From the NCBI GenBank assembly GCA_973895155.1, contig OZ316891.1:14229037-14293036 (forward strand): a stretch of 64,000 bases of DNA, given 5' to 3'. Below, piece by piece: positions 11,601 to 53,300 of this stretch. The stretch's first letter is position 1. Each line of letters opens with the position of its first letter. Made by a program: the position numbers and the translations under genes. The notes under the pieces were generated by a model that was not told where the DNA came from, did no database searches, and saw nothing but the letters and a program-made list of their open reading frames with translations. Source of the stretch: Marsupella aquatica (taxonomy: Eukaryota; Plantae; Marchantiophyta).

Positions 11601-12652
11601 TGATGAATGTGTAGTTGGCAACACTAGGAATAGGACTTGATGTACTCGTGCTTGAAGAGCCAGAAGTGCCAGCCTCTCCACTCTCCAAGCTGCTAGCATG
11701 TTGCTGATAAGGTGATGAGGCCTCTCCAAGGCCTGTTGTACCTGCTGATCTGGGTTGGTCCACACCATGAAACTCATAAATTTTGTCAGTCACGTTACAA
11801 GGGACCTCCTCCCCCCCCAACACTTGGACTGAAGCGATGAGTGTTGAATAGAGGTAAGTGCACCTCGTCTAGATGCCATGTAGCAGCACCATGGGGGGAT
11901 CTCTCCGTGACAGCAAATAGCAAACAGCAAACAGTAAACAGCAAACAGCAAAACTCATACCAGCAAATGTGCACCCAAAAAAAGACACCGAATGATAAGA
12001 AAATATTGTCACATATATTGGACCTGAAGCGGCCATTGAGTACATTTATACTAGCGTCGGGCGCTATAAGGAAAACATCCAAATCAAAACCTCTTTGAAC
12101 TACAGACTACAGTAATAGCGTCGAGCGCTACTCTAATCCGACACGTCACGGCGTTCTTATTTAATGTCGTCGTTCTCCATGAAGGGGTAAATAAAACAAG
12201 GAAAACTAAAGACCAGATCCACAACCACCACTTGACTCTGAGCCCAATTCAGAACCGCTACTTTCTGATCTATCAGTGGACTCTGCTTCGTCATCCACAT
12301 ACTTGGATTTTGCAATATCATCTACGAAGTGATTCTGCACAAACTTTCTATCTGAGCCTCTCTTGAGTCTAAGACCCTTACTCTCCCAAGTAAGCGTCCT
12401 GACTGAATCTGCCCGTCGTGCCGCCTTTTCAGCATAAGAGGGGAGAACAAATGGCTTCTCCGGGGTCTGTACAACGTTCCTAGAGACGTTCCTTTGAAGT
12501 TGAAAATGCCTCCAAAGATTCCACTCTGACCTGAGAATTTGAACTGGAGTTCTTTAGTCAAAGTCGGGAAATTGGGCGAATTTCTAGACAAAAGGGAGTA
12601 GAGGAGATTTTTGGAAAAAAGTATAAAATGAGAGAAAGAAAGCTAAAGAAAA

Positions 12653-12922
12653 TTACTCTTCTGACTCTTCATTGTCCTCATCTCCAGATCCAAGGTCCAC
12701 CACATTCTTCGACACCTCATCATCTTTAGATTGCTGAGAAGCATTGACACCCTCATCCTCGTCTTCCGAATCAAAATTTAGAATAGCACGGAGCCTGTCC
12801 AGCTTCTTACTTCCAGGAATCTTCTTACCGGAAGTATCAACAAACTCTGGCCAATTTTCCAGCCCAAGAACGAAGTGACCAGAATAATCTCCAGCCACAA
12901 ACGTACTACCGGAACCTACTGT
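12653..12922 (-). pseudogene. C-terminal part of the E1 methyltransferase-like gene (SAM-binding motif I half plus acidic tail)
   Basis: TVGSGSTFVAGDYSGHFVLGLE resembles FxGSGST..A...GR..IG.E of N4/N6 DNA methylases. It joins in frame to PGDIVMDW (31739 onward) once CACTA-1 and one TGT are removed. Confidence 0.85.
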
Positions 12923-12939
12923 CACTAGAAGAAAACAGG

Positions 12940-13830
12940 GCCCTTTATGACCAATCACCCAATGACAGAGATGAATAAATGACCAAAAGTTTTAATGACA
13001 CAAAAAGAATGACGGGGGAATGACTGTCCACAGTGACCAATAGACTGAAATGACAAAATGTTAATTTTTTCGTCATTTTGTATAATGTCTATAATGACTG
13101 ATGCGACCAAAATGACCCAATTTCCCTAAATGGTCAATTTAGACACATGTCTTAAATGACACAATTAATAACAACAATGATAAATCAGTGTTTAGCAACA
13201 TTATAGTCACTCTGGACAATGACTGAAATGACCAAAAATCTATTTGCATCATTTTGGACAACGGTGATAAATGACAAAAAATGTATTATCGTCATTTTAA
13301 CCAACGGTGTTAAATGACAAAATTTAGGGTCAATCTGAAAATGAGAATATATCAGTGTTTACAACAACATATTGTCATTATGGACTTCTGCCATAAATGA
13401 CTAACTCTAGGGTCAATCTTGAAATTAGGACATATTAGTGTTTACAAGAACATACCGTCATTATGGACTTCTCTCATAAATGACAAAATTTAGGGTCAAT
13501 CTGAAAATGAGAATATATCAGTGTTTACAACAACATATTGTCATTATGGACTTCTGCCATAAATGACTAACTCTAGGGTCAATCTTGAAATTAGGACATA
13601 TCAGTGTTTACAAGAACATACCGTCATTATGGACTTCTCTCATAAATGACTAACTCCACAGTCAATCTTGAATTAGGATATATCGGTGTTTTCAACAACA
13701 TACTGTCATTATGGACTTGTCGCATAAATGACTAAATATAGGGCAATCTAAAAATCAAGATATATCAATGTTTACAATAACATACAGTCATTATGGACTT
13801 ATTACATAAATGACTACTTATAGAGTCATT
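12940..13830. repeat. CACTA-1 left subterminal repeats (AAATGAC/GTCATT), including ~83-bp tandem units
   Basis: Dense atgac/gtcat motifs; atcagtgttt-type anchors at ~13351, 13434, 13518, 13600, 13682 and 13764. Confidence 0.88.
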
Positions 13831-13904
13831 AAAGAACCCAAGAGATATGAAGATTAAAATACTCAATAGTCATTCCAGACACCTATCATAATTGTAGAGT
13901 CATA

Positions 13905-16900
13905 CACCTTTGGAGTGATTTTCCAGAAGTGTCATCATATATGGATGCGCGCATACTATCGTATCCATGGGGCAAATGAAACCTTTTTGTCTCTCCAAGA
14001 AGTAGGGCAATACCAATGGAAGGTTGTCATGCTTTGTTGTAATTGTGTCATGTTTGTGCCGGTGTTTGGACGGGGAATATTTTAATTTGCAAATAAATGC
14101 ATGCATACCATCACATCCAAAGGCAAATAAAAGTTGTTTTTTGGTTCTCCAAGAGGTAGTGCTGCCCCAATGGAATGGGCAGGGGAGTCATGCTTCTCAG
14201 TATGGTGTGGGTGCAGGTTTAGGGAAGAGGAATATTCCAACCTTGCAAGGAATCTAAAGCTAGCTCTCTTTGGAGGTACTAGGGCCTTTATTGGGTCATA
14301 TGTGAGCAATGGCCCGTCATAAATGCCAATGACTAAAAGTAGGGTCATTAAAATTGTCATATGGAGAGTCATATCAGTCTAATGACTGGATTTGTGGTCA
14401 TTTGAGGGGTCCCTTATGTAGTCATTAAGGAAAAGCACAAATGACCATTTTGGGGCTAGGGGCTTGAGGTGGGCCCTAGAGTGCCATGGGCCCCACATAG
14501 AGGTGAGAACCCCTCCACTAGGTGCGGGACACTATACTCATCATTGTCCAACCACTAGTTGCGACATAAACACTTTGGGCACATGTTTTTGTGTTTCCTT
14601 AAGGCATGATGCACCTTTGGGGAAATCACTCCCAAGTCGTACGACTTTGGAGTGATTTGCCAAAAGTGCAACCATGGATGTATACCATCACATCCAAAGG
14701 CAAATAAAACCTGTTTTTTGGTTCTCCAAGAGGTAGTGCTGCACGAATGGAATGGGCAGGGAGTCGTGCTTCTTAGCATGGTGTGGCTGCGGGATTAGGG
14801 TTTGGGAATATTCCAACCTTGCAAGGAATCTAAAGCTGGCTCTCTTTGGAGGTACTAGGGCCTTTATTGGGTCATATGTGAGCAATGGCCCGTCATAAAT
14901 GCCAATTACTACAAGAAAGGTCATTAAAATGGTCACATTGGATGTCATATAAGCGGAATGACCTGAATTATTGTCATTTGAGGGGTCCCTCATGCAGTCA
15001 TTAAGGAAAAGCACAAATGACCATTTTGGGGCTAGGGGCTGGAGGTGCACCCTAGAGTGCCATGGGGCCCCACATAGAGGTGAGAACCCCTCCACGAGGT
15101 GCGGGACACTATACTCATCATTGTCCAACCACTAGTTGCGACATAAACACTTTGGACACATGTTTTTGTGTTTCCTTAAGGCATGATGCACCTTTGGGGA
15201 AATCACTCCCAAGTCGTACGACTTTGGAGTGATTTGCCAAAAGTGTTGCCATGCATGCACACCATCACATACAAAGGCAAATAAAAGTTGTTTTTGGGTT
15301 CTCCAAGAGGTGGTGTTGCACCAATGGAATGGGCAGGGGAGTCGTGCTTCCCTGTATGGTGTGGGTGTGGGTTTAGGAAAGAGGAATATTCCAACCTTGC
15401 AAGGAATCTAAAGCGGGCTCTCTTTGGAGGTACTAGGGCCTTTATTGGGTCATATGTGAGCAATGGACCGTCATAAATATCAATGACTAAAAGCAAGGTC
15501 ATTAAAACTGTCATATGGAGAGTCATATCAATCTAATGACTGGATTTGTGGTCATTTGAGGGGTCCCTTATGCAGTCATTAAGGAAAAGCACAAATGACC
15601 AGTTTGGGGCTAGGGGCTGGAGGTGGGCCCTAGAGTGCCATGTGGCCCCACATAGAGGTGAGAACCCCTCCACTACGTGCGGGACACTATACTCATCATT
15701 GTCCAACCACTAGTTGCGACATAAACACCTTGGACACATGTTTTTGCGTTTACTTAAGGCATGATGCACCTTTGGGGAAATCACTCCCAAGTCGTATGAC
15801 TTTGGAGTGATTTGCCAAAAGTGTCACCATGGATGCATACCACTGTTCCAAACGCAAATGAAGCCCTTTTTTGTCTCTCCAAGAGGTAGCGCAACACCAA
15901 TGGAATGGGTGTGGCAGTGGTGCTTCCCTCTATGATGTGTCTGATGTTTAAAGGTATACGATTATTCCATTTTTGCAAGGAATGTAGAGCGGGCTCTCTC
16001 TGGCGGTACTAGGACCTTCTTTGGGTCATTTTTTAACAAAGTCATGTCATAAGTGCCAATGACCACAAGTAGGGTCATTGAATTGGTCATATGGGATGTC
16101 ATATAATTCAAATGACTGGACTTGTTGTCATTTGAGGGGTCTCTAGTGCAGTCATTGAAGACAAGCATGAATGACCAATTTGGAGCTAAGGGCTGGAGGT
16201 GGGCCCTAGAGTGCCATGTGGCACCACATAGAGCTCGCAACCCCTTCACTAGGTGTCAAATACTATAATTACTATTCTCCAACCACTAGTTGCACCATTA
16301 GCAGTTTGGAGCCATGTTTTTGTGTTTACTTAAGGGATGATATAATCTTGGGGAAATCACTCCCAAGTCGTACGACTTTGGAGTGATTTGCCAAAAGTGT
16401 CACCATTGATGCATACCATCCTATCTAAAGGAAATGAAGCCATTTTTTTTGTCTCTGCAAGAAGTAGTGCAAGGCTGTTGTCCTTCCATGTAATTGTGTC
16501 ATGTTTGTGCTGGTGTTTGGATGGGGAATATTCTATTAAATGAATAGTGATGGGGCACTCAAGAAGGTAGTGTAATCTTCATTGAGTCATTTCTGAAAAA
16601 ATTGGTGTCATAAATACCAATGACTACAAGTAGGGTCATTAAATCTATCATATGGGCTGTCACATAAGTCAAATGACTGGATTTGTGGTCATTTGAGGGG
16701 TCCCTTGTGCAATCATTAAGCAGAAGCACAAATGACCAGTTTGGGGCTGGGGGCTGGAGGTGGGCCCTAGAGTGCCATGGGGCCCCACATAGAGGTGAGA
16801 ACCCCCTCCACTAGGTGCGGGACACTATACTCATCATCGTCCAACCACTAGTTGTGCCATGAACACTTTGGACACATGTTTTTGCATTTACTTAAGGCAT

Positions 16901-17870
16901 GATGCACCTTGGGGAAATCACTCCCAAGTCATACAACTTTGGAGTGATTTGCCAAAAGTGTCACCATGGATGCATACCACCGTATCCAAGCACAAATGGA
17001 GCCATTTTTTGTCTCTCCAAGAAGTAGCGCAACACCAATGGAAGGTTGTCATCTTGTGATGTAATTGTGTCATGTTTGTGCCGGTGTTTGGATGGGGAAT
17101 ACTCCATTTTGCATATGAATAGTGTCGGGGCATTGTGAGTAGGTGTTGTAATCTTCATTGGGTCATTTTGGAGGAATAGTGTGTCATTAATGCCAAAGAC
17201 TGCAGTAAGGGTCATTTTGGCAGTCCTTTTGGAAGTCATTTGTGCCAAATGACTCCATATGGGGTCATTATAGAGGTCCCTCATGGTGTCATTACGGACC
17301 ATCAGAAATGACCCTTTTGGGTCTAGGAGCTTAAGGTGGCCCTAGTGTGCCATGGGGCTCTACATGAAGGTGGCAACCTCTCCACAAGGTGCGGGGTACT
17401 ATACCCACTATTCTCCAACCACTAGTTGCACCATGAGCACTTTGGAGCCATGTTTTTGCAATTACTTAAGGGATGATGCAACCTTGGGGAAATCACTCCC
17501 AAGTCATACAACTTTGGAGTGATTTGCCAAAAGTGTCACCATGCATGCATACCATCCTAAGGCATGCATACAAAAATTGTTTTTGTCTCTCCAAGAGGTA
17601 TATAGTGCAATACTAGTGGAAGACTATGTCCTTCTATATAACTATGTCATGTTTGTGCCGATATTTGGATTTTGGATATATTCTATTAAATTCCAAAGGA
17701 ATTGTAAAGGGGCACTCCGAGAGGTAGTATACTCTTCATTGGGTCATTTTCACATAATGTGTGTCATTAATGTCAATGACTACAATAAGGGTCATTTTGG
17801 TAGTCAGTTGGAGGTCATTTGGAGCAATTGACTGCATATGTGGTCATTAGAGAGGTCCCTCATGGTGTGT
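13905..17870. repeat. Tandem array of about seven ~575-bp units inside CACTA-1
   Basis: Anchor accactagttg at 14551, 15128, 15706, 16282, 16844 and 17418; units contain a long imperfect palindrome. Confidence 0.92.
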
Positions 17871-18269
17871 CATTAATGAAAACACCTCAAATTAGGGTAA
17901 TCTTGGTTGTCATACTAGAGGTCAGAAGTACCAAATGACTGGAAATGTGGTCTTTTCAAAGGCTATTGGGGGGTTCTCTTTGGAGGTACAAGGGAGTTCA
18001 TTGGATCATTTGTGAATTAAATGGTGCTTCAATCTGAGGACTAAACGTGGGGTCACTCACGCTGTCATATTGGAAGCCATTAATGTTGGCATATTGGAGG
18101 TCATATAGTCATGGGAAGGCTCACTTGTTAATGCTTTGGTGTAATGCTCTCAAAAACTCTTAGACAACATAGCCTCATATGTAGTCTTCCCTTGGTCCAA
18201 AAGGACCTTTTATATCGCGGGCATGATTTTTTATATATAACATTGGTCCTTAACATTCTTGTTGGCACC

Positions 18270-18480
18270 TACACAAACAGCCATGACCTTATGGGGGGGT
18301 TGCGACATTATAAGTTATTAACCTTGCCTTCCCTACTTAGGACCTTATGGGGGCGTCCGGACCTTGTTATTACCCTATATAGTCGGTATTTCCCTAGGGC
18401 CTTATGGGGGCGAGGGGGGGGGTGGTTTACATTGTTATTAACCTAGTCTCAACTTCCCTAGGGCCTTATGGGGGGTCCAG
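18270..18480. repeat. Short direct repeats (ctagg(g/a)ccttatggggg)
   Basis: About 4 copies of ccttatgggggg between 18287 and 18476. Confidence 0.65.
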
Positions 18481-21400
18481 ACATATGAGAGATTGTCAGA
18501 ATAGAACCTAATTCATGACCCACGTACAATATCCACCATCCCCATCTGGAGAAATACCTTACTTTTACGGGGTTTAGGCATCCAGCTTTAGGTTTTTCCT
18601 CCTCAAGTGTTCTCGCGTACCAACAGGAGCCCTTTTTCCTGAAAAAACATCGACGGAGAGGGCAATGCTCGATGTGCTCTTTTCTTGGCATGCCTTGTGT
18701 GCACATTGCAAGGGCTTAGGGTTGCGCAGCGTTGTGCATTGCCTCCACCAAGCTTCGACACTCTTCCGAGCACATTTGCTAGACTAGCACAGGGTGGAGT
18801 TGCGGGAGGGGAGGAGCTGCAACACTCTTCCGCGCACAGGTTGGAGTTGCCCCAGGAGCACAGGTTGGAGTTGCGGGAGGGGAGGAGTTGCGTGAGGTTG
18901 GAGGTGCGGAAGGGAAGAGCTGCAGAAGGAAGAGCCGGACACAATCAGAAACAGTCGAGCGACAAGCTGCGGGTCACGAGCTGTGGGTGAGGAGCTACGA
19001 TCGGCAACAAGCTGTGCAAGGTGGATGCGGAAGGCATTTGCGCACTGGGGCCCCGATCATCATGGAAGGCGATTGCTATGGAAGCTCGTGGAGGCAGTGA
19101 AAGCAGGGAGGAAATGATTCTTGCTGTGGAAGGTCGACGATAGCTTCTTGAAGAGGTTGTGGAGTTTGCGGAAGGGAGCCGGTTGTTTGTTTGGTCTCAA
19201 CATTTGTTTCTTTAAGTGGGTGCGAGCTGCTTGCGGAAGGGGAGAGGTGACCTGATTGCGGACGGGGAGAAGGCAAGCTGCTTGCGGAAGGGGAGAGGTC
19301 GAGCAGCTGCTTGCGAAAGGGGAGAGGGCGACTCATTGCGGAAGCTGAGAGTGCAAGCTACTTGCGGAAGGCAGCAGAGCACAAGCTGCTACCTGCAAGT
19401 TGAGGCCTGCTAGCTTCCGCCTCAAAGGTATTGACCTTATTCCCATTGGCGCCCATGCTGTGATTTGCCTGGTTGCTCTGTGCTCTCCACTTCCGGCTCC
19501 ACCCCAGCCTGGGACCTGCAATGTGTTGTGTTGGGACCTGTGTTGCTGTGTGTCAGAGCTCTCTGCTTATGTTTTTTCTCTATCTATCCCTCTCCATTCG
19601 CTACATGTTCTCTGATCTTCTATTCTATTGCCATTTACTACTTGTTCTTTGAGTTTGCTGAGTTTGGTTGTCCACCTTCTCGCCCTCTGTAGCCTTGAGA
19701 GGATTGCTCAATTTGTATGTGACCGCTCCTGTTGCATGCACTTATCTGCACTTACTTTTCAGACAATTTCTACTTTAAAGGACGTCTCTCTTTATTGTAT
19801 ATATCTCTCCTTTTCCATTTAAGACGGAACTGTCTCCACTACTGCTAGTCTCCCGGTTGAGCTTCTTTATTGCCCATTACAATCTATATCAATTTTTTGC
19901 CCACTCAGGTTCTCTGATCTTCAATTCTATTGCCATTTGCTACATGTTCTTTGAGTTTGTTGAGTTTGGTTGTCCACCTTCTCGCCCTCTATAGCCTTTG
20001 CATCACAAGTGCCTGCATTTCCTTCCCTGTCCCATGCTAGCTCCACTGCGGCCTTCCACTACTATCTATGTTGATTCCTTCCACTGCTACAAAATTCTGC
20101 TTTGCAATGCCATCCCAATGCTCATATGTCCCAGTAAAATTCGGGTAGACATAAGTATTAGGCGCAGAGTCTTCTCTCTCTGCTTGCCCAAGATCAGGGT
20201 TTACTGGTTCTAATTGCTAATTCAGTCCCCATTTAGAATGACCTAAGAAATTTAACTATCTTCGAGCTTTATTGTTTGTTTTGGCAAAATCTTCCCTTGC
20301 GGCCAGCAGCTGAGGCAGCATCCACGATGTCCGATACATTTTTCAAGACATAGGTAAGCTGGCTGGGGAATGCCTTTCTCCTCAATCTCAAGAGATGATT
20401 TTTCTGGAGTCTGCTCACGTATTGCTCTTGCTTGTCCAGAACTTGAACGGCTATTTACCACAACTAAATCAAGTGCCCGAGTTCTGACCGAGTTGTCCTA
20501 TGTCTGTCTGCTGTTGATTTCTGATTGCTACTTGTTGGATTTGTCTGCTATGTTCAGTTCAGTTTGTTGTCTTGTTGTCGTCTGGCAATTATTGTCAATT
20601 ATTCTGACTGCGTGAAAGGCTGTTCTATTTAGTGCTGCCTAATTGAACATAAAAATATGCTATTAAGTTGATTGAGTTAGGCAAATCAGGATGCCATACC
20701 CTTGTGTTCAAAATTCTATATCTGGCAGTGTTTGTTGTGTTTGTTGTGTTCAAAATTCTATTGGCAGTGTCAACCTAGAAAGATAACCTGATGTATCGCC
20801 AACCTTTTCAGTGTGCTGCCAAAGTCCCTGTAGATGCCACTCCTTCTCTGTTTTAAATGAGTAAACTCCTTTCCTCCATATTGAAATGTCATCCTGGACC
20901 TAAGCTGCGAGGAACTGCGAGGTGAGTCGTGACAATCTTTGTGGTGCAAGGTGAGCTTGATCTCTTATTATTACAATGTAGTCCTTAGTTTTCCATTGTA
21001 TGATGTTTTCCTTAGTCTGTCTATGTTCCTCAATGAAAATTTGGTTTCCTTACTCTTCTTTTGACATCCCTCTGTATCATAGCCTTTTCTTTTCTCTTTT
21101 TTTTACTGAAGAGAAGTGCAGGCATGTATGGTGAATCCTCACTTGATTCCAGCAACGACTCTGTAGAATTTTGTCGCCAAAAAGTTTCAGAGTTTTGTGT
21201 GTGGTTTGCCAACTGCTGTGCCACCTCAGAGAATTCCTTAGTGGCTTTTGTACAAGCCTTGCTCTTCAACTATGGTAATTTACAGCTAATTGTCTGATGT
21301 TCACACAACATCCATACACAGCAATGAATACAACTCCATGAATACAGCCACATGATTTCCTTTGGTCTGCAAACTGGACAAAACTAAACTAAACTCAGCT

Positions 21401-22107
21401 TGGTCAATTTTAAATTCTTCGTAAGGGTCTCTGACAGCAGCCCGGTATAGTCATTTGTGCACGAAGATAGAGTACGGTGCAGCTTTTGAAAAAGTGGGTG
21501 GACCAGCAGCTTGTTGAGAGTAAAGCAACTTATGGTTCTGTAACAGATGTGTGCAGTAGCTTAAGATGTAGAAGGCACACAATAAAACTTGATTTTTACA
21601 GATTTAAAAAAGGGCAGGGTGAGTGAGCACTGCATGTTGAACTCACAGGTCCGAATCTTGATTTGATTTCGCTGCTAAAATTCGTATCTCTTGCCTGAGT
21701 CCCAGTTTGCTGGAGTTTTGTTGCTCTCTGTGCTTTGTTGTGCACATTGTTGTGTTTGCTTTGTCCATTTTAAAACTTGAGAGCCAAATGAATGCTTTGC
21801 TGAAACTCAATTGCTATTTGTTCTGTGTTGCCCTTACAGATTTTAAAAAGGCAGGGTGAGTGAGCACTGCTGTACAGCAAGCGAAGGCATACAGGTTGCA
21901 ATATTTGTGATTGCTTCCAATCATAGGCCAAGGTTATTTGCGCTGCTCAGTCCTAAATGCTTTGCCATCTATAAAGCATTGGTTTATGCTGCACCCTTGT
22001 GGTTACATGTCATATTTTATGCTGCACCCTCATTCTTTTGTGTCATGCTGCACCCTGTTATTCCTTCTTGTTTCACAATCTGATGTAGGGTCTGAGTGTG
22101 CAGGACC

Positions 22108-22767
22108 ATGGCTCGCAATAAGCAGAAGGCCATGAATCGTTGCAGAGGTGAATCCTCTCAAGCACCTCAATTGTCCTTATATTCAGACATTGAGATTAAC
22201 CAGAATAGTCCACATGTATGTGCGATTTGTGATGAGGGAGGGGATCTCATTGTTTGTGATGGGCCTTGCCACCGACATTTCCATAAGAATGTTTCCTGTC
22301 CTTTGGGTCAACAATGGCTATGCCCAACTATATCCCTCGCTGATGGCCATGTTGGAGAATGGCTTTGTGTTGATTGCAAGAATGAGGAACATTCTTGCTT
22401 TAAGTGCCATGTGTCTGGAAAAATTGGTGAAGAGGTAAGAAAATGTCCAGACTCTCTTTGTGCCCGGTTTTACTGTCGGCAGTGTTTGGTTCCTGGCACA
22501 GCATCATGTGGACTCCATATTTGTCTTACTTGTGGACAGGGGCCCAATGATGGGGCTAATGGCTTTTTGGTTCAGTGCATGAGGTGTCCTAAGGCATGGC
22601 ACAAGGACTGCCTGCTGTTTATCCAACAGAGGGGATTTGCCCATGATCGAACAATTTGGGATCACTCAGCGCATGGGCAGCCCAAGAAGGGGATGTTTTA
22701 CTGTCCTGACCATGACATTGACCCTACACTAGGCACTCCTGCTAGGAGCCACATATCTTGGATTTGA
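22108..22767 (+). CDS. EDM2/NSD-type multi-PHD-finger protein carried by CACTA-1
   Basis: CAICDEGGDLIVCDGPCHRHFH..WLCVDC..CFKC..C..CARFYC..CGLHICLTC..CMRCPKAWHKDCL..FYCPDHDIDPTLGTPARSHI follows the pattern of the plant EDM2 PHD cassette. Intronless open frame from ATG 22108. Confidence 0.8.
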   Translation: MARNKQKAMNRCRGESSQAPQLSLYSDIEINQNSPHVCAICDEGGDLIVCDGPCHRHFHKNVSCPLGQQWLCPTISLADGHVGEWLCVDCKNEEHSCFKCHVSGKIGEEVRKCPDSLCARFYCRQCLVPGTASCGLHICLTCGQGPNDGANGFLVQCMRCPKAWHKDCLLFIQQRGFAHDRTIWDHSAHGQPKKGMFYCPDHDIDPTLGTPARSHISWI

Positions 22768-23367
22768 TTGAGGCTGGATGGAACACAAACTTGAGATAGA
22801 GCTTTTTGATGGTTTCACGTGGACTTAAACAATTTTCAGAGTGCTAAAACATGTGGACTATTTATATGCAGTTTGATGAACTCCTCATGTATACACACTC
22901 TACGACAGTGCATTGCGGATTGAGGCAATTAATTTTGAGAAATCAACTTTATTATCTTTTCCAGGGTAGGATTCCGATTTTCAAGCATGTGCTTTGAGTG
23001 TGACTTTCCTCCATATTGATGTCTAAACTTCACTTGTAAATTTGTCACTGGTGTCACAAACGTTACTTATTCCAGACCTGTCTGCTCACATTCCTAATAG
23101 GCAAACAAATACTGGAAATGATGAAGGCACAGAGATTTACGTTCATAGTATCATTCTGATGACACTGTATGTGATGCTCTATTTGTATGCAAGAAGGAGA
23201 AGGTGCCCTACTACAGTGGATTTGAGAAACTGGGCTCTGTGGGTTTGAGCAATTGGACTGTGGTTGGCATCGGTTGTACAACTGTGACGGTAGGCCCAAT
23301 TTTGTATGCATGTCACTCTGATTCAGTTTGAAAATCATAGTTTGAATACAATTTCAATCAAGCTAGC

Positions 23368-31720: not shown

Positions 31721-31735
31721 TGTTTTCTACTAGTG

Positions 31736-40473: not shown

Positions 40474-40598
40474 CTGTAAATGAACAATTCGATTCTCATA
40501 TTATGCAATTGCAAACAACCACGCGACCGGGCGTGTCACTCCCAAAAGTTCAATTTCAATCAATTTATAAATAATAATTGATAATAAACAATAAACGT

Positions 40599-41506: not shown

Positions 41507-41633
41507 GTAAAACATTAAGAAATGAAAATAAGTTTATAACGCGAACGGTCGTGTGACTACAAAGAGAGACACTGAAATGAAGTGTATTACCTGTACAAGA
41601 CGGTCGTTCAGTGCTGGAATTCCGCCGGAAATG

Positions 41634-42380: not shown

Positions 42381-42508
42381 AAAATAGAGATTTCAGTAAG
42401 CCTTCAAATAACGTATTGAGGTTGTAGCCTAAGGGTTGTAGCCTCAGAAAATAGAAACAATAACAGATCAATAATAAAATAATGACGTCTATAATAGAAA
42501 CTTTAAGC

Positions 42509-44262
42509 TTATAGCTTGCGAATGACCTTTGGATTGGGTGGATCCGGCCATTTTGCAGCTGATCTCTTGGGTGCCTCAATCGCAACAACATCCTTCAGCC
42601 CTCCTCGAGACCGCAGTGATCGCTCCACCGGACCAGTTTGCGAAGGTTGGAGCGATGAGACGGGAAGACCTTCAAATGGTTGTGGCATTTGATTCAAATA
42701 TTCCACAATCTGGGAATCCGATTCCAAAATATCCGGTGCCACAATTTCTGCGCGAGTCACCTCTGCAATATATCGGGGTCGAGACCATGAACCCGGTCGC
42801 GTCAAGTCAGCTGTTAGTCTCTTAACGACTTGAGCCGAGTCTGGTGCCAAAAACGTTCCCAGGTCTTGCACTCGATTCACGGAAAAGCGGACATTATTGA
42901 TGATTGTCTCCATTCTGGATGCAGTGGCAGTCTTCTCCTCGGTAATCAAAAGACCCTTCCAATATTGCAAAGCAAGGACTGCCTGGACTCGGAGCTACTC
43001 CGGTGAATATTTATTCCAATCATCCAATGAGACCGTACTTAAGGGTGGATCGTTAAATTCAAACTCCGGGCGAAGAAAATAGTCTAATATTTTCTTCTTA
43101 ACTGCAACTGAGGGTGAAGAAGGCTTCTTCAAATTCAGCCTTATTTTCGGTAGACGTTGTGCCTCAGGAATAAGCGAAAGATCCTTGGCCCTCTCGGCCT
43201 CCTTCCTCGCTGCCTCCAGTCTTGCGGCTTCTTCTCTCTCCAGTCTTGCGGAATCCACCTTTTCCGCCTCCAACTTCTCCGCCTCCACCCTCTCCGGTCT
43301 TGCGGTCTCGTCCGCCATCCTCTCGGCCAGCAGCCTCTCAGCCGCCTCACTCTCCGCCTTGGCCCTATTTTCCTCTGTCACTAAAAGGACTCTCGCAGCC
43401 TCCGCTTTCTCCGCCTGGGCTTTCTCAGCCTGGGCTTTCTCCGCCTGGGCTTTCTGAGCCTGGGCTTTATGAGCCTGGGCTTTCTGAGCCTGGGCTTTCT
43501 GAGCCTAGGCTTTCTCGGCATCCGCTTTCTCCGCCTGGGCTTTCTCCGCCTGGGCTTTCTCCGCCTGGGCTTTTTGAGCCTGGGCTTTCTCAGCCTGGGC
43601 TTTCTCAGCCTCTGCTTTCTCCGCCTCGGCTTTCTCAGCCTCGACTTTCTCCTTCTTCTTCGCGACAGTTGCTTTTCTAGCTGCTGCCTTTTCTTCTTAA
43701 CCTCCTTCTTTTGAAGCTGCTCTTGTCGGGCCGCCTCTTGTCGGGATGCCTCCTCCTGCCGGGCCACCTCCTTCTTTTGAAGCTCCTCTTGCCGGGCTGC
43801 CTCCTGCCGGGCCGCTTCCTTCTTTTGAAGCTTCTCTTGCCGGGCCGCCTCCTGCCGGGCCTCCGCCAGCCTGGCCTCCTCCAGCCTGGCCTCCTCGTGC
43901 CGGGCCGCATCGTGCCGGGCCTCCTCCTACCGGGCCTCCTCCTGCCGGGCCGCCTCCTCTTGGTCCACCTCATGTCGAGGCTCCTGTGTGGCCTCTTCAT
44001 CAGAGTACTCAGCGTCCTCGGAACCCTCCATCTCCTCGTCCTCTTCATCAGCGTCCTCAGCGTCCTTCATCTCCTCTTCGTCACTCTCTTCATCTCCTCT
44101 ATTGTCGGAATCTCCGACGTCGTTCTGCGTATCGGTCATCCACTCTGGATCTTGGTCATTGACATCCCCATCCGCGTCACCTTCCGCGTCACCTTCCCCC
44201 TCACCATCCGCATCACCATTGCTCCCTGCATCCTCAACATTGAAGCCACAGTCGACTTGATC
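42509..44262 (-). pseudogene. Acidic and A/E/K/Q/R-rich coiled-coil linker exon of the E2 giant gene (15-bp repeats EAARQ and AEKAQ)
   Basis: D/E tract at 43990-44250, tandem EAARQ and AEKAQ units, in-frame TAG stops and a frameshift near 43690. Confidence 0.7.
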
Positions 44263-44378
44263 TGAATAAAATCAGATCATTTGATAAGAATGACTCACGC
44301 GTGAAAAGAAATGTTATGAATGTCCACGCGCATGTTCGCGTGACGCAATAAAAAGTAAGAGGTTTCAAAAGTAACTTA

Positions 44379-47300
44379 CCTTGGATTGGCCCACTAGGGT
44401 ACTCCGTTGGTCGAATGTATAATCGATCGGAATCTTCAGAGAGTGCATACTCTTGCAATAATTGATTACAAATATTATCAGGGATATGTTGTTCGTGGAG
44501 GACATCCAAAACATCAGCCCTGAGAGCAGTTACGGATGGACGGTACTTCATTAATTTATCTATACATTTTTCTATACTAGCCCGTACTGGGTCAATCAAT
44601 GACAGCGTTGTATCAATTATCGCCGTGGTGTGTTGCAAGAAACAAGACAACTCCCTATGCGTTGCCACAGGGCAGTAATATTTTACATTGGATCCAGCAT
44701 CCTGTAAAAAAAAGCCAAAATTAGTTCACAATATTAATTGAGAATATAATAATCTAAATAATCTTACAATCGAAACCCCAAAATATAAATAAAAAAACTT
44801 ACCATTAAGCACTAGATCAAGTTCGTTCCCTCACCGAAGCATATAGCCCATTCCCCACATTGGACGAATTGACTAATAATACTTTCAAAGAATGGAAGTA
44901 TCTTTTCTGGGGAAGGTGTCGTGAACTCGCCGCTCTCTTCAAAATTGGCTATCTTCTCAATCTGATATTTGGAGACCAATTGGAACTCGAGGGCTTGTGG
45001 ATCGCCCATTGTGCTGAAGGCCAAGCTGTGAAAAGCGTAGGTTACAATAAGCTTCTTCTCCTTCGGCCTCTTCTGAATATAATGGCTATCGACAGCAACG
45101 TAGTGTGTGTACTTCCCTAATTCCCGTTTGATTAAGTAAGACTCAACGGGAGAGGCTACAATAATAACCACATGGTGTGGTTTTGCCCCTATCTCGCTAG
45201 TAGCACGAAATAACCCCTCATAGAATGAGCAATTTGGCGGACGCAAATCTCCCATTGATGAGGGATCAAAATAAATCAAGCTCGCAAGGTTCTTGTCTTC
45301 ACGTATGATACAGTCTGCAAACCCAGCATTTTGTATATCCTGCAGGGATCGCAATTTCAGCCTCTCACCGACCGGCCGCACTAGTTGGTTTCCTTGACTA
45401 TCAACTGATTTCTGTATTTCTTCCACCAACCTGTAGAATATAGGGTCAATCTCCTTCAACAAATTATCATTACTAATATTTACATTTAAGCACTTCTTCA
45501 GATAACCACTCAACGCATCTCTCAACTGCTTCAGCACCATCTTGTCGAGCTTAAAGCGATCAATCATTCCTTTGACCCGCAATTTCCGTGCTGAATCTGT
45601 CAGACTTTTCAGCTCCATCCGGGTGGATGTTTCCCCGTTGAGTTTACTCAATAATAAAATCTCAAACTCAACTTTCGTCTTCTTCTTTATACAGAATTGC
45701 TCCAAACTCATGCTGGTCGTTGACAACACTGGAGCCTCAGAGGACTTCCTCGCCTTACCAGATTTTACTTTGATGCTTCGGTTTTTGAGTATAGACAGTC
45801 TTTCGCTCAACATATATTCCGCTGCCTTTCGAAGAACCGAGTCTGAGCACCCTTGACAAGAACGGAACGTCTTCTTCAGAAGATGATAAGCACAAGGATT
45901 ATCCGCAATTTTGACGGCATCCCTCTGTAAAATTCCGTTGTAAATTACAAGCTCTCCTATCCTTGATAGTTCGTAGACCTCCATCCACTTCTTGAATGTT
46001 TCGTCCTCCATTGTAAAGAGAAACGGAGCCAATTCTCCAAATTTCATCATTTCGTTCTTCCCCATTTGAGCCCATGGGCAGACAAAACTCGTAGCTCTCA
46101 TAAATACCTGAAAAACAATGGAAACATGACAATTCTAAGCTTGACGCGACCGTTTGCGTGACAAAAGTTTATACGATAATGTGATCGAAGAGGGTTATTT
46201 ATATACCTTCCAATTTGGATGACGATAATGTGATCCAGGCCGCCCAAATGAGTTCCAGATATTACGACACTGTCGTACAATGGTCAAAAATTGTCCTTCT
46301 TCCATTGATGTTTGATGACAGTGGTTCAGAGCTTTCGATAATCCCATCAAATGAACATTATTGTCGTTGTTGAGCGTTGCCCAAAACATTACAGCTTCTA
46401 CAGTACCGCAAGCATCTCGTACAACTTGGCTAACTTTGTCGTCCTCTCTCAGCAATTTGTACGCCATTATTGTGTGCTGGCCTCCGAGTATCCAGAAATG
46501 ACTGGTCAAATGTCCTCCTCCTTTGGCGATGAATCGTAGGGCGTCCCATTGTAGTCGGGATCTCTGTCGGCCTCCGACTGAACCCACTTCACAGGGACTA
46601 AAAAGCAGCATCGCTTCTCGAACTTTATAGTCGAATGAGAGAGGAGTGAATTCTTTAGCCTATGTGTAATCCTGATTCCACTCTCGGCACTTGATGTGGT
46701 CCGGTGCAAGATGACAACGTGATGTCTCAACAAAAAATGACTTGCTATTAAATATATTCACAGCACTATATTCTTTGAGGAAAGAATCGAACAGAGCCCC
46801 GACATTCGCTGAGGTAATTACTTTTGGAAGATTCTTCGCAGAGTATACTTCAACCTTGCTCACTGGCGGGGCCTTTCCCAAGCAAAATCCCTGGTTGAAA
46901 GGAACTCTCTGGAACTCAAGTACGTCAATAATGTATTGACAAATCAAATCTCCCGTTGATGCCTCTGGATCGGAAGGATATCCCACACTAGTAACCTTTT
47001 CCAAGGCGTGCCTTGCACCTAGAAGATCATCGATTCTGGGCTGATTGAAGGTTACATATTGCGTTCGATCCAAACAAATGCTTATTTTGTCTTCCTGCTG
47101 GTCGTCGCTAACTAGCAGAACCAATCCCTTTGTACACTCTTTAACTTTCATGTTCTTCTCAAAGAAACACTCGAGAATTTTTGATCTCTCCAAAACTGTA
47201 GCTTTATCATTTCTTGCCACCACAAGACGGACAGCCCCATTGCGAACGACTATTCCAAAATCGGATATCTCAGTCGATTCAAAGAGATGGATACTCTTTG

Positions 47301-47442
47301 TCTCCATTGTTCTCTCTCTGATTGACTTTCCTTGATATGCAAGTATGGATGTCTCCGCGGGAGTCATTTTTGTCTTGGTTTTCTTTCGAGAAGCAGCTTT
47401 AGACGAGTCTCTTTTCCGCTTTGAGGTTCCGGTAGGATCCAT
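44379..47442 (-). pseudogene. E2 ParB-like plus degenerate DNA methyltransferase-like region, multi-exon
   Basis: CREWNQDY..RLKNSLL..CFLVPVK..HFWILGGQHTIMA (ParB/DGQHR-like); ASLIYFDP (motif IV-like); EKILPFFESIISQFVQCGEWAICFGEGT (resembles EKP..L...I.....GD.VLDPF.GSG). Candidate GT-AG introns ~46200-46110 and ~44802-44703. Confidence 0.6.
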
Positions 47443-47517
47443 TCTGAAATAGACAAATATTGAAAGTTAAACGTTTATTATAAAATACTAACACGCGCAT
47501 GGTCACGTTGTGCCGAA

Positions 47518-48048
47518 TTACATTTTAGGAATGTTTATCCTGACCCAATCTTCTCGCTCATCTTCATCTAACCAAAACCAAAGGTTCCTAAACGTGTCAA
47601 GTTCAGATCCTTCAAATCCACCCAGAATGTCTAGCGGCGGGAGAGTTCTGATGGATTCTGTAAATCTGAATGCTACACTCCATGAAGTCAAATGCCTTTG
47701 AAGCGATTCATATCCTGGTCTATCAGTGAAGTCGTAAGCTACCAAGGTGACCGTCGCCCAAGTACTACTATAAGTAACTATGTGGCACCACTTCTTACTG
47801 ACTATTCGAATGGCGATCAAGTCCATGACCCGATTTTTAATCGCAGTATCCGACAAATTCCCAAGACAGTGGAAAAACTCTTTGACTAATGGCCAAATAT
47901 ATTTCTCGACAATATCGTCCGAAAGACCGGGTATCAGGTCTTCAGCTTGACTCCATATCATGTTTCGGTTCAGAACCTTTGCACGTGCAATGCGCTCCAT
48001 CATCATTTGACGATGAGATTTTCGATTCATGTCAAAGGACTGCAGCAT
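47518..48048 (-). CDS. F-box-like protein or exon, copy 1
   Basis: LIPGLSDDIVEKYIWPLV..LIAIRIVSKKWCHIVT..W. Confidence 0.65.
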   Translation of the reverse strand: MLQSFDMNRKSHRQMMMERIARAKVLNRNMIWSQAEDLIPGLSDDIVEKYIWPLVKEFFHCLGNLSDTAIKNRVMDLIAIRIVSKKWCHIVTYSSTWATVTLVAYDFTDRPGYESLQRHLTSWSVAFRFTESIRTLPPLDILGGFEGSELDTFRNLWFWLDEDEREDWVRINIPKM

Positions 48049-48125
48049 AATATGGAAAAGATTAAGAACAAGAACCTATCCATTAAGAACTGGGACCACC
48101 GAGATTCTGAGAAAATCTACCAAAC

Positions 48126-48649
48126 CTTTTGATTAGGACATCTCGTTCTTCCTCATCTAAATTGTTATATTTGTTCGTAAACAATGCGATTTTGTCAGAA
48201 GTAGTAGTCCCAAGAACAGATATTTCTGGAAGCATAGAAATATCCTGTCGAATAACTCAATAGACTGAGTCAAACTCCAACTCGTCAGTTTCGGGTATGT
48301 TGTAAAGAGCATCATTTGCGACATCGACAATCCGGTTTGCTTGTTTGAGGATAGCCCATAACCTTGTATTTGTAACTAAAAATTTCCACTTCTTGCTACA
48401 AGCTCCAAACTGAATAAGGTCTCGGACCCTATCGATAACCAAATCGTTATCGAGGTGTCGATATCCACGCAATCTTTCAATTGAAATAAAGTGTTTGTAG
48501 AGTATTGGCCAAATGTTTGAAATGACCAAAACATCTGGTATTCCTCCAATGAGACTAGAGGAGGTTTCATCCAGCGTATCCCATATTGTTTTCTGTTTCT
48601 TTTCATGAGATGAAAGGAAATCTCGAGCCTCATTCAAAAGTTGGCTCAT
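48126..48649 (-). pseudogene. F-box-like paralogue, copy 2 (internal TGA at 48257)
   Basis: LIGGIPDVLVISNIWPIL..FGACSKKWKFLVT..W. Read-through gives ISMLPEISVLG..LDEEERD, which matches the copy 1 tail IRTLPPLDILG..LDEDERED. Confidence 0.62.
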
Positions 48650-48714
48650 CCTGCTTTTATCATATCACAAAACATTGTTAGAAGACATACGACGCGCTTG
48701 GTCACATAAGTTAA

Positions 48715-49278
48715 CTAGAATTCCTTAAAAGTGTAGATGTCACCCTCAAGGTATCCAACTTCGTGGCATCTGACTGTAAATTTCCATTTTTCAAGAGGGT
48801 GAAGAGCATCGTAAGTCTTCGCGAAGAGTTCCCTAAGATCTCTGGACATTGACCCCATGAATTTAATTCTTGGGTATTTCTGGAAGAAACTTTGAATTGT
48901 CGATGAGAGAGACTCATTTCCGATCGGTTTAGTAGGATTTCCAGGGAAAGCCAAATCTAATAAACTCAACTTGATTACACCCAGAAGATAGGTATTCCCA
49001 ACAAGGTGGCGCCATCTGCAACACACCGAAGATAGTCCTACAAACTCATCCAATTCCTTTATTGAGAAATTTCCTGCATTAGCCGAGGAATTAAAAGTCT
49101 CCTTGATCCGAGGCCATATCAATTCCACGACAATGAAATCTGGAAGTCCAGGTAGTAGTGTTTCAACAAATACAAAATATCCCGCCAGCAGACCATCTTG
49201 GCTTCTGTCCAAAACGTCAAATATTGGGCATAGATATCTGAAGCTCTCCAGACCAGGTTCACCCATGACTCTTTTCAA
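48715..49278 (-). CDS. F-box-like paralogue, copy 3
   Basis: LLPGLPDFIVVELIWPRI..LSSVCCRWRHLVG. Confidence 0.65.
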   Translation of the reverse strand: MKRVMGEPGLESFRYLCPIFDVLDRSQDGLLAGYFVFVETLLPGLPDFIVVELIWPRIKETFNSSANAGNFSIKELDEFVGLSSVCCRWRHLVGNTYLLGVIKLSLLDLAFPGNPTKPIGNESLSSTIQSFFQKYPRIKFMGSMSRDLRELFAKTYDALHPLEKWKFTVRCHEVGYLEGDIYTFKEF

Positions 49279-49299
49279 CCAAATGATATATCCCAGAGA

Positions 49300-49805
49300 T
49301 TATTTTCACGCGACTGGTCGCGTCTACAAATCAGAATGCATAAACAATTCTTTGAGAGACTGATTTTTTCGGGTCACAACGTGAAATCATAAATGTTGCT
49401 TCGTCCTCTAACAGAACCAGTCAATGAGAGAGCAACCTCAGACGTGACTGGTCGCGTCAACTGAACCTAAACAACTATATCCACTGAACCTTCTGTGGAG
49501 ATTTGGATATGATACGCGCTCAGTAAATCTATCCAGTTTTCTTCTCACACGCGACTGGTCGCGTCAACTGGTCCTAAAAAGAACCTTACCTCCTCTAACA
49601 GAACCAGTCAATGAGAGAGCAACCTCAAACGCGACTGGTCGCGTCAACTGAACCTAAACAACTATATCCATTGAACCTTCTGTGGAGATTTGGATATGGT
49701 ACGCGCTCAGTAAATCTATCCAGTTTCCTTCTCACACGCGACTGGTCACGTCAACTGGTCCTAAAAGGAACCTCACAGTATTTTCACGCGACTGGTCGCA
49801 TCAAC
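49300..49805. repeat. ~187-bp tandem duplication region carrying six ACGCGACTGGTCGCGT palindromes
   Basis: cctctaacagaacc at 49405 and 49592; palindromes at 49308, 49442, 49549, 49629, 49736 and 49786. Confidence 0.88.
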
Positions 49806-52349
49806 AGCTCAAACAACTTTTGGACAATTGGATAATACAGTGATACAACTGTGATTACTGACCCGTACGGACAAGGAAATCCGAGTAAGCATGATTTCAT
49901 TCATTTGTATTCATTCATTTGTATTCATTCATGAACTTTACAATAATTCAGATGTTTGAGCTCTGTCATTGTGAAACTATTATATATTAGAAGTTTAGAG
50001 AATGATCCAGCTAAGATGATTCAATTTAGCAGTCTACTGGTTGTATTCGTCAATTAAAGGATTCAGTGTAATGAGATTCACATAACATGAGAGTTTATAT
50101 GATTAAATTCACAGCGTGCAAGTTTGTAATGACTTACTTAAGACGATTCAGGTTGTATTTTAATTAGTGAGTTTGTATGATTCACACATATTTGAGTTTA
50201 CAAACAAACCGCATTATGAAAACTGTGCTTAACAATCAAGAGAAATTTTAGCAAACCACAATCAACACCAGGTGAAAATGTAGAAATTACACCTGAATTC
50301 TGAAAAATTGATGTAATCGTCTGAGAGATTGACGTCCAAGCACTTGAACACCTTGCTGCGGCATTCCAGAAAGTAAATATAAGATTGAAGATATTAATAT
50401 GCTAAGCAACAACAACACAGCTTCTATACTTCTATACATAGATCTTCGCTGCCACCAATTGAATAACATGTGCTTAATGCTAAGGAGCTCATTATGTCGA
50501 GTTAAAAAGACTCTTTGAGAAGTCTTTGAGTGGATAGGCAAATTGAGCATGAATAAAAGCGCACTAAACCTGAAGATTCAAAGAGGTGAAACAAACCTGA
50601 ATGCTGAATGGAAGGAGCTAAAACAAGCTGCCAAAAAGTAGTTTGAGCTGCTGAAACACGTTGATCGAGCTGATATGAGCTTAAAATTGGCTGACACGAG
50701 CTGATACAAGCACTCCTAAAAAGCTAGCTGCAACGAACTAGCAAACTAGAAGTGAATACGAGCTGTAAATGCGAGCTGCAATGCACCAACGAGCTCCTGG
50801 TCGAAACGATGGACAACTACTAAGAGCTGCAATGCGCCGACAAGCACCTGACCACAACGAACGAGCTGCAACGACAAAAATGAAATCCAGGGCAGGAGCG
50901 AGAGCGACGAGAGCAGGCGCGCAAAAGTCTAGGGAGCAAGAAACAACAACAATGAACAATGAACTCGAGACCGTGGGCGCCGACACTAAGGAAGGACTAA
51001 TTAGGGTATTGTTTTAGCATAACCCTAATAACAGCCTAGCGACAGGAAGGTTCCAGATGATCTCCGTACACTCCACCATCGACTGAACAAACTATGCAAT
51101 CGTGAAAAAAAGATTACCGGATTCCTTTTGATTTTTCGTACTAAAGGAGATTTCTATTTGATGGCCAATTTGAAATTTAAACCGGTAATTATGCAACTGC
51201 GAAAGATTGTTAGTGGGGACCCCCGGATCCGGATCCGGATCCGTATCTTCACTATATCTGCCAATTCAAATCCAAAATGTGAACGAACGACAACTTTCTC
51301 ACGATCGTTCCATCACGTAGTGGAGGCAAACTTCAAAATCATTCCATTTTGGTAGTGGAGACCGTCGGATCCGGATCCGTACTCCACTCTCTATCTTGCC
51401 AATTCAAACCCTTACTCTAAACAACGTAAAATGATTCTCACGGTCAGGGAGAACCGATATTCAAAATCAATCCTGTACAATGATTCTCACGACTGGAGAC
51501 TCAACCAATTTTCAAAATCAAAATCGAGTCCAGATGAACACATCCTCCATGGAGTCAATAGACTGATCTCATTGCTCACGGATCATTCTTCATTTTCAGT
51601 TTCTCCTGACTAGGATACTAGCTGGGCTCTCAGCGGAGGCTGATCCAAGGCACATTTGAGGTGGAGCAGATTGGATCATTCGACTATTCCAGTCGGAGGC
51701 GGAGCTCATTCAAGCAACGTTGGCGCAGTTCTTGTTGTATCACCTTCAATCTTGGGGAGAGCACATTCGATCAAGCGGGAGAGTTGCGACGAAGCGAGAC
51801 GACAAACATTTAGAACCTCCATAGTCTGCCTCATTCATCGAAGCATTCTAGCGGACCAACAAAGAGCGGCTATTCTGAAATCACAGTTTGGTCGAGGATT
51901 TTGATCTTGATACGATCAACAAGTTGTCATTCTCTGGTGGTGGGATTTGATCACGATACTCAAGGAAATTGGAGTTCGAAGGAGGAGGCTTAGTTGGCTG
52001 GGACGAGGAGGGTACGCTGGAAGGAAGAGGCTTGGCTGGGAGGAGGGTTTCCGCCAACATCGGAGGGTTGCCGCCAACATTGCTGAGACCACACGCAACT
52101 GAATAACTTGTAAGTATCAATCAGCATTAATTCCACAATAAATGAGGAGAGTAGTTGCCTTAAATCACGCATTCAATGCATGAATTGAGTCAATGAAGTT
52201 ATGATCCAATTTCTCACTCCGATTTTGATCAATCCGTGTTTCAAGTCCAATACAGAAGCAATGTATCAGAAGTACTAGTAGAGGATCCGAATGAATTCTC
52301 TAGTCTAAAATTGTATGGCGTACGCGTATAGTTGTTCGTACATTTTGCT

Positions 52350-53300
52350 ATTATTTATTGTAGTCGACGGCCTAGCAAAACGAAACGTAATCGAGGTCCA
52401 TTTTTCAGATCTTCCTGATCTCAACTTGTTAGTAGGATGACCTATTTTTTGGTTACACATGCAGTTCGTCACGCGCACAGTCGCGTGAACCAATTTATCT
52501 CGTGTCTTTTGATATTGTTTATTGTAGTCGACAGCCTAGCAAATTGGCCAGACATCTATTTTAAAACCAATGTCTTCGTTTCATCATGCGCACGGTTGCG
52601 TTAATGTTGTAGAGGTCAGCGAAAGTTCTGCACTCTTAGACGTAATCGCCCTTTATTTCAGAGATCTTCCTGATCTCAACTTGTTAGTAGGATGACCTGT
52701 TTTTTGGTTACACATGTAGTTCGTCACGCGCACAGTTGCATGAACCAATTTATCTCGTGTCTTTTGATAATGTTTATTGTAGTCGAAAGCCCAGAGAATT
52801 GGCCAGAAATCTATTTTGAAACCGAGTTCTGATTCACGCGACCGGTCACGTTAATATTTTAGAGGTCAGCGAAAGCTCTGCACTCTTAGACGTAATCGCC
52901 CTTTATTTCTCAGATCTTTCTGATCTCAACTTGTTAGTAGGATGACCTGTTTTTTGGGTTACACATGTAGTTCATCACGCGCACAGTCGCGTGAACCAAT
53001 TTATCTTGATATTGTTTATTGTAGTCGACTGCCCAACGAATTGGCCAGAAATATATTTTAAAACCGAGGTCTTCGTTTCATCACGCGCCCGGTCGCGTTA
53101 ATGTTTTAGAGGTCAGCAAAAGCTTTGCACTCTTAGACGTAATCGCCCTTTATTTCTCAGATCTGCCTGATCTCAACTTGTTAGTAGGATGACCTGTTTT
53201 TGGTTACACATGTAGTTCATCACGCGCACAGTCGCGTGAACCAATTTATCTCAGGTCTTTTTGATATTGTTTATTGTAGTCGACAGCCTAGCGAATTGTC
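52350..53300. repeat. About four ~250-bp tandem units carrying seven ACGCG-N6-CGCGT-type palindromes
   Basis: gatctcaacttgttagtaggatgacct at ~52417, 52672, 52922 and 53168; palindromes at 52471, 52586, 52726, 52836, 52977, 53083 and 53222. Confidence 0.9.

Follow-up and report, generated by a model that had tools for sequence, protein, structure and literature searches.

ParB-like proteins and private palindromes in two multi-copy elements of the liverwort Marsupella aquatica

The window analysed here is a stretch of 64,000 nucleotides from the liverwort Marsupella aquatica (assembly GCA_973895155.1, contig OZ316891.1, positions 14,229,037 to 14,293,036 of the forward strand). It holds two adjacent elements, E1 and E2, each of which encodes a spliced protein with a ParB-like exon (weakly so in E2) and carries its own palindrome, repeated in introns and spacers (Table 1). 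E1 is split by a CACTA element, CACTA1, and the right side of E2 adjoins a second one, CACTA2, at 54682. The left end of E1 was placed at a CpG step near 11900, and on its right side other copies in the DNA sequencing runs diverge at 37969–37971. Both elements belong to repeated families: thousands of contigs cover them (5,189, 2,174, 7,177 and 209 in four DNA runs), a depth that does not equal copy number, and the E1 gene was seen without the CACTA1 insertion in two DNA runs. The copies in the window are dead pseudogenes, with eight in-frame stops across the first two exon ranges of E1 and with frameshifts in E2 that are absent from other copies in the DNA runs. The Pfam scan gave no transposase catalytic domain for either element, and a search for terminal inverted repeats, element ends or a target-site duplication found none, the copies appearing truncated or interrupted. 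E1 and E2 are likely DNA transposons, for which Mutator, KDZ, Plavaka and Sola are the candidate classes.

ParB-like genes of the two elements

The motifs FDGNHR in E1 and LGGQHT in E2, which a preliminary description of this DNA had read as ParB/Srx-like, are both present. The fold of the E1 protein was read from a homologue, P0029 (Riccia, 1,191 amino acids), rather than from E1 itself, with the identity between the two being 33% in the ParB domain. In the model of P0029, the predicted local distance difference test score (pLDDT) is 79–98 per block over residues 131–300, and the chain is mostly confident to about residue 640; the C-terminus, with a pLDDT below 50, shows no fold. When the model was compared with 48,161 chains in VIA, all four matches with a Z of at least 5 were ParB/Srx proteins, namely KorB (Z 7.2, root-mean-square deviation (RMSD) 4.0, 135 aligned), PadC (Z 6.5, RMSD 4.8, 130 aligned), Pnob8 ParB-N (Z 5.7, RMSD 3.2, 99 aligned) and sulfiredoxin, Srx (Z 5.5, RMSD 4.0, 89 aligned). 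ParB or Noc occupied nine of the top ten Foldseek rows. A ParB/Srx fold is predicted for the E1 family from this model. The GxxR motif takes the form GNHR in E1, and its arginine is kept in 96 of the 114 motif-bearing proteins among 151 scanned. Of the ENxxR motif of ParB CTPase clamps, the E1 family shows only an invariant asparagine at the end of the exon, the equivalence of position having been judged by reading. The helical region that follows the ParB domain in the model gave no clear structural match on its own, and no helix-turn-helix was demonstrated in it; the corresponding middle exon of E1 is a candidate DNA-reading region.

For alignment, the C-terminal part of the E1 protein was read across the intron and CACTA1. 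The methyltransferase region of the family matches three phage β-class enzymes in HHalign (96.3%, E 1.9e-9, 187 columns), and pairwise alignment of the E1 part with phage β-class enzymes gave z values of 6.5–13.1, reached by 0/200 shuffles in each case. The order of its motifs, IV...X-I-II-III with the S-adenosylmethionine (SAM)-binding loop, is the β-class order, and most of the signal lies in the SAM-binding half. Among the weak phage matches listed for the short piece beyond CACTA1, 13 of 15 are annotated DNA methylases. The catalytic motif (S/D/N)PP(Y/F/W) is absent from E1, which has Y-I-P-T, and from three homologues, which have D-M-P-S, D-F-P-I and D-V-P-F. By these alignments, the E1 family has a β-class amino-methyltransferase-like domain with a degenerate catalytic motif. 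Searches with the separate pieces gave neither ParB nor N6_N4_Mtase (PF01555) in Pfam, where the matches were weak ones to DUF1015 (5/56) and DndB (3/56), and sequence searches of the PDB returned nothing relevant. In the atlas search with the E1 exon, one cluster had ParB_N at 11% and another had DUF3723 at 31%, which we treat as leads only.

Divergent from this gene lies a cysteine-rich open reading frame (ORF) that is possibly the N-terminus of a transposase. It had no Pfam match and no meaningful PDB match, and its likeness to GCM/Mutator zinc fingers is an assumption of ours that no search supported.

For the E2 protein, four homologues were found in all, and its GGQH exon is 42% identical over 406 columns to the intact homologue P0155. 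In HHalign, the GGQH region matched the E1 family at 4.9% (E 0.008), with GGQH in register with DGNH, against 0.07–0.22% for five shuffles. A direct BLAST of the E1 and E2 proteins against each other was not significant, and all scores of the atlas search for E2 were below 0.9. The α/β domain that follows was modelled with a pLDDT of 45 and gave generic α/β matches only. On these comparisons the ParB label of E2 is weakly supported, and its methyltransferase label weakly supported or unsupported. The earlier claim of a ParB fold joined to a β-order methyltransferase-like domain in both proteins stands for the E1 family, by the P0029 model and the HHalign match, and is unconfirmed for E2, which gave a low profile match and no methyltransferase match.

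E2 also carries phosphatase, Ulp1 and F-box-like cargo in one orientation, which could act on the C-terminal domain of RNA polymerase II and on the SUMO and ubiquitin pathways. This cargo had suggested that E2 is an endogenous virus, an idea that was set aside since E2 has introns and no viral core genes were seen. At 43345–43995, 15-bp tandem coding repeats give rise to a low-complexity acidic and alanine-rich stretch after the methyltransferase-like exons.

Palindromes, related loci and CpG content

The E1 palindrome, TAGCGCCNGGCGCTA, has three exact sites and 14 sites at up to three mismatches, spanning 12052–36901, whereas 30 block shuffles gave a mean of 0.5 and a maximum of 2 at the same threshold. 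The literal E2 word, ACGCGACCGGTCGCGT, has no exact copy and 15 sites at up to three mismatches. With a free 2-base centre, ACGCGACNNGTCGCGT, the number of sites at this threshold is 17 (mean 0.53 and maximum 2 in 30 shuffles), and at up to four mismatches it is 23, some of them probably chance. About 20 copies of the E2 word had been described. At up to three mismatches, the E1 and E2 motifs are absent from each other's element, from both CACTA elements and from the left flank. None of the 14 E1 sites and none of the 17 E2 sites overlaps an exon, with exons making up 72% of E1 and 62% of E2 on a map that was drawn by hand from ORFs, splice signals and homologue alignments when the positions of the sites were already known. 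One E2 site with four mismatches (42787) falls inside an ORF. Each element has a palindrome in the intron directly after its own ParB exon.

The preliminary description is borne out on these points: the palindromes are real, with counts far above those of shuffles, the two sets do not mix, 0/31 sites lie in exons, and neither CACTA element holds any. The layout it had likened to that of VANC, in which element-specific motifs are confined to non-coding DNA, holds as well. Palindrome-aware discovery on regions of the window, without a motif given beforehand, ranked the E1 and E2 words first among the repeated palindromes of their respective regions.

Two stretches of E2, 52446–53261 and 49424–49800, consist of tandem units of about 250 bp and of 187 bp, and both carry the E2 palindrome. 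The array at 49.5 kb has a much higher depth in the DNA runs, suggesting longer arrays in other copies.

About ten of the relatives of the E1 ParB exon are unrelated repeat proteins (for example P0012 and P0022), which were excluded from the alignments; the tree was built from 52 rows matching both anchor motifs. The 30 homologues that were looked up include seven from Riccia sorocarpa and four from Adiantum, and no relatives were found in the viral and prokaryote collections. A scan of metagenomes gave six related loci, L001–L006, with L005 and L006 overlapping. L002 and L003, which form one clade apart from E1 (support 100/99), share a third palindrome, TCGGCGA-N3-TCGCCGA, in the otherwise diverged introns that follow their ParB exons; L003 has two sites (0/200 shuffles). 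In L006, a degenerate ParB-like exon has, 4–6 kb upstream, decayed ORFs (3487–5713) that by eye resemble a hAT-type transposase.

With the motifs masked, the observed/expected ratio of CpG is 0.67–0.72 in E1 and 0.85 in E2, as compared with 0.30 in CACTA1, 0.28 in the gypsy-type remnant and 0.54 in CACTA2. At silent sites (codon boundaries), the CpG odds ratio is 0.32 for the E1 gene, 0.72 for the divergent E1 ORF and 0.71–0.74 for E2; it is 0.05 for CACTA1, 0.06 for the gypsy-type remnant and 0.23 for CACTA2. CACTA1 is inserted into E1 and is therefore younger, yet it is more depleted, so that local age does not explain the contrast. The retention of CpG points to lineages that have long escaped CG methylation, and is an indirect first sign that E1 and E2 have been protected from methylation.

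The neighbouring CACTA elements have features of their own. CACTA1 has an NSD-like PHD-finger ORF (Pfam) upstream of its transposase (22096–22767, forward strand), an 83-bp tandem subterminal repeat (13287–13865), and a tandem subterminal repeat of about 577 bp in six copies (14137–17600), in which every unit holds three copies of a long palindrome. At the left end of CACTA2 (54600–55100), the CpG observed/expected ratio peaks at 1.7–2.2 together with repeated ATCGGA-type palindromes. A SET-domain ORF (60237–60896, forward strand; Pfam E 5e-6) lies directly upstream of the CACTA2 transposase; with its milder CpG depletion than CACTA1, CACTA2 may have its own chromatin-modifying accessory gene.

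Table 1. Coordinates of the elements, genes and palindromes in the window
Feature	Coordinates	Strand	Remarks
gypsy-type remnant	~9,000-11,870		RVT_1 (Pfam); left-flank comparison for CpG
E1 element	11900..37970		ends approximate; multi-copy, decayed; split by CACTA1
E1 palindromes TAGCGCCNGGCGCTA	14 starts: 12052, 12116, 32038, 32111, 32912, 34360, 35564, 35700, 35806, 35909, 35986, 36758, 36822, 36887		
E1 continuation past CACTA1	12656..12922	-	remainder of motif I, motifs II-III and an acidic tail
CACTA1	12923..31735	+	nested in the E1 methyltransferase-like gene; terminal inverted repeat CACTAG..., target-site duplication TGT; Transposase_21 (Pfam)
E1 exon into motif X and start of motif I	31736..31984	-	cut by CACTA1
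E1 exon with low-complexity linker, then degenerate motif IV of β-class methyltransferase	32149..32910	-	
E1 helical middle exon	33003..34340	-	3 stops; 25% identical to P0029 (458 columns); all-helical in model
E1 ParB/Srx-like exon (FDGNHR)	34462..35181	-	5 in-frame stops; 191 relatives; fold of homologue matches KorB, PadC, ParB-N, Srx
E1 divergent Cys-rich ORF	37029..37970	+	truncated near 37,970
E2 element	38851..54681		ends approximate; multi-copy, decayed; right side adjoins CACTA2
Three NIF/FCP1-like phosphatase ORFs, E2	38951..41633	-	Pfam NIF E 5e-15, 6e-11, 9e-12
E2 palindromes ACGCGACNNGTCGCGT	39726..53237; 17 starts: 39726, 40521, 41539, 44326, 46144, 47493, 49308, 49442, 49549, 49629, 49736, 49786, 52471, 52836, 52977, 53083, 53222		
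Ulp1 (Peptidase_C48) ORF, E2	41634..42392	-	Pfam E 3.4e-19
E2 exon with helical part, then α/β domain	44803..46110	-	3 homologues; methyltransferase identity unconfirmed
E2 GGQH exon, weakly ParB-like	46198..47466	-	two frameshifts relative to other copies (indels at 46508, 46662)
Three ORFs, E2	47518..49299	-	two F-box (E 0.005 and 0.0096, both below cut-off); third without Pfam match

Candidate explanations for the palindromes

The explanation that we favour, tentatively and at somewhat less than even odds, is that a ParB-type accessory protein binds the palindrome of its own family and limits the silencing of the element. E1 and E2 would then represent two multi-copy elements, each with a private CG-rich palindrome in its introns and spacers. 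The ParB-type protein of each family would bind the cognate palindrome and spread along the element, and the spread protein would keep host CG methylation off it. Binding could be dimeric, through the helices that follow the ParB domain, and loading may be gated by a nucleotide, with GxxR being kept in the E1 family and lost in E2. The methyltransferase domain would presumably serve as a DNA- or SAM-binding module more than as an enzyme.

Several points weigh against this explanation. The structural scores of P0029 are modest, with no Foldseek E value at or below 0.001 and every VIA Z value below 8. Selection of two of the three phage templates relied on the motif-I piece, and without that piece the pairwise z values are -0.9 to 3.0. 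E2 is without the GxxR arginine, the window copy and P0155 both reading GGQHT; its α/β domain drew no methyltransferase in the top 50 rows of VIA, and the HHalign profile match of that domain is 0.05%. Moreover, E2 has the strongest CpG retention yet the weakest ParB evidence. The silent-site ratio of the E1 gene is near that of CACTA2, an element that carries no such gene within the window. As for the third palindrome, it was defined after L002 and L003 had been seen, its one site in L002 is equalled in 7/200 shuffles, and it has no site in four of the six loci, namely L001 (in which some 60 bases of the intron could be seen), L004, and L005 with L006, which overlap.

The palindromes could instead be bound by the transposase or another cargo protein, which would activate the element while the ParB-like protein does something else. 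E1 does have the divergent cysteine-rich ORF, eight of its 14 sites fall in the space separating the two divergent genes, and transposases and TnpA can be sequence-specific activators (bioRxiv 2026.08.24.746577). CACTA1 also has repeated palindromes of its own, the top one in eight copies, showing that such repeats are not unique to ParB-bearing elements; this and the activator role of transposases count against binding by the ParB-like protein too. We nevertheless consider transposase binding rather unlikely, given that in E1, E2, L002 and L003 the ParB gene has sites within its own internal introns, and that inverted-repeat arrays of red algae adjoin ParB-domain genes which move from one transposon superfamily to another (bioRxiv 10.1101/2025.02.11.637652). 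Another alternative retains guidance by the ParB domain but makes the protein an active writer of N4-methylcytosine (4mC) or N6-methyladenine (6mA), whose amino-methyl mark at the palindromes would block or override host 5-methylcytosine. The same has been proposed for Sola1-1 of Ectocarpus (PMC12477816), and a β-class 4mC enzyme exists in Marchantia (bioRxiv 10.1101/2021.02.12.428880). The β-class motif order and a well-kept SAM-binding half in E1 fit with such a writer, as does the D-x-P kept in homologues, in one of them as D-V-P-F. But since E1 and the three homologues lack the catalytic motif, the equivalent residues of E2 vary among its homologues and no methyltransferase fold was recovered for E2, an active writer appears quite unlikely.

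It is also conceivable that the elements are CpG-rich because they arrived recently from a host with weak methylation, with the palindromes acting in pairing or packaging during transposition and not in anti-silencing. In agreement with this, the copies are decaying by C>T and G>A change (15 of the 16 mismatches in the E1 motifs), which implies that protection is not acting on them now, and high mobility of the accessory genes among elements has been described (bioRxiv 10.1101/2025.02.11.637652). However, land plants (Riccia, Adiantum) harbour diverse members of the E1 family, the intron position is the same across L001–L004, and L001–L003 are CpG-rich (0.67–1.16); we consider this alternative, too, to be quite unlikely. 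The least likely of these alternatives is that the palindromes are sites for host transcription factors, or RNA hairpin or splicing signals, that were spread by local duplication and are unrelated to the ParB-like protein. All sites are non-coding, and five of the 17 E2 sites have flanks in common with another site, which leaves 12 independent groups; but the flanks of all 14 E1 sites are unrelated to one another, and three lineages use three different words of similar design. RNA hairpins with loops of 1–3 bases form poorly, and the loops here are of that length.

Related systems and implications

ParB-domain accessory proteins that bind and modify their own element have been proposed before, and the system, a candidate new one in the preliminary description, is therefore not new as a concept (PMC12477816; bioRxiv 10.1101/2025.02.11.637652). 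In Ectocarpus, the accessory protein of Sola1-1_Ec32, about 1,100 amino acids in length, combines ParB-like and 4mC/6mA-type methyltransferase domains; its gene is divergent from the transposase, and the product was proposed to bind and modify its own element (PMC12477816). It resembles E1 in its domains and its proposed role. By description, which is the basis of this comparison, it differs in coming from a brown alga and in that its main text has no mention of palindromes, whereas E1 has a degenerate catalytic motif and mapped sites. In the red alga Bostrychia, PAG3 (ParB-domain) genes of Plavaka elements have neighbouring tandem inverted repeats, self-binding and modification were proposed with a likeness to VANDAL, and VANC was named as the sole case known of a transposon protein that binds and modifies the element encoding it; accessory genes were described as highly mobile, and in red algae ParB-domain genes as moving between transposon superfamilies (bioRxiv 10.1101/2025.02.11.637652). 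PAG3/PAG2 thus share with E1 and E2 a ParB-domain accessory gene, nearby inverted repeats and proposed self-binding. Unlike the E1 fusion, PAG3 is fused to a 2-oxoglutarate oxygenase, with the methylase encoded separately, and the Bostrychia repeats form tandem arrays beside the gene rather than single sites dispersed through introns.

There is a parallel in layout with VANC21 and VANC6 of Arabidopsis VANDAL elements, which have family-specific targets, namely element-specific short motifs in introns and spacers as in E1 and E2, and for which loss of methylation over the element was shown experimentally (PMC5735166). VANC motifs, unlike those of E1 and E2, are 8–9 bp long, non-palindromic and often tandem, and the available text reports no ParB or methyltransferase domain in VANC. 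With the bacterial ParB-parS, KorB and BisD systems, of which the BisD clamp activates genes across a mobile element (PMC12409273), the E1 family shares the ParB/Srx fold as predicted, GxxR and palindromes of 15–17 bp; it differs in showing nothing of ENxxR beyond the invariant asparagine, and in being eukaryotic, spliced and fused to a methyltransferase-like domain. DN4MT1 of Marchantia is, like the E1 domain, a β-class amino-methyltransferase of a non-seed plant, but it is a host gene with an intact TSPPY that acts genome-wide in sperm, and its main text makes no mention of ParB (bioRxiv 10.1101/2021.02.12.428880). A helix-turn-helix of the ParB type fused to a chlorophyte Dam has also been described (PMC4738411). 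The literature searches of this analysis showed no paper on members in land plants, on cognate palindromes that are dispersed or on the retention of CpG. What is new here is the land-plant variant, the dispersed element-specific sites, the third palindrome in related loci and the retention of CpG.

A bolder reading, which we hold to be doubtful, is that non-seed land plants host a diversifying transposon-borne code similar to ParB/parS, in which the ParB-fold clamp of each element family would have a private palindrome, at roughly one per intron, and the loaded clamp would keep CG methylation off the whole element. The window puts two candidate protein–motif pairs next to each other and has an internal contrast in CpG; relatives supply a third motif and, in Riccia and Adiantum, intact homologues. 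The paired motifs, the intact homologues and this contrast make a swap experiment straightforward. If the bolder reading proves true, a second, independently evolved and programmable anti-silencing system, derived from a bacterial partition module, would stand beside VANC, and a nucleotide-gated sliding clamp would operate in plant chromatin. Protection by a ParB-type protein, if true, would extend ParB clamp biology into eukaryotic chromatin and offer a modular means of demethylating selected plant DNA.

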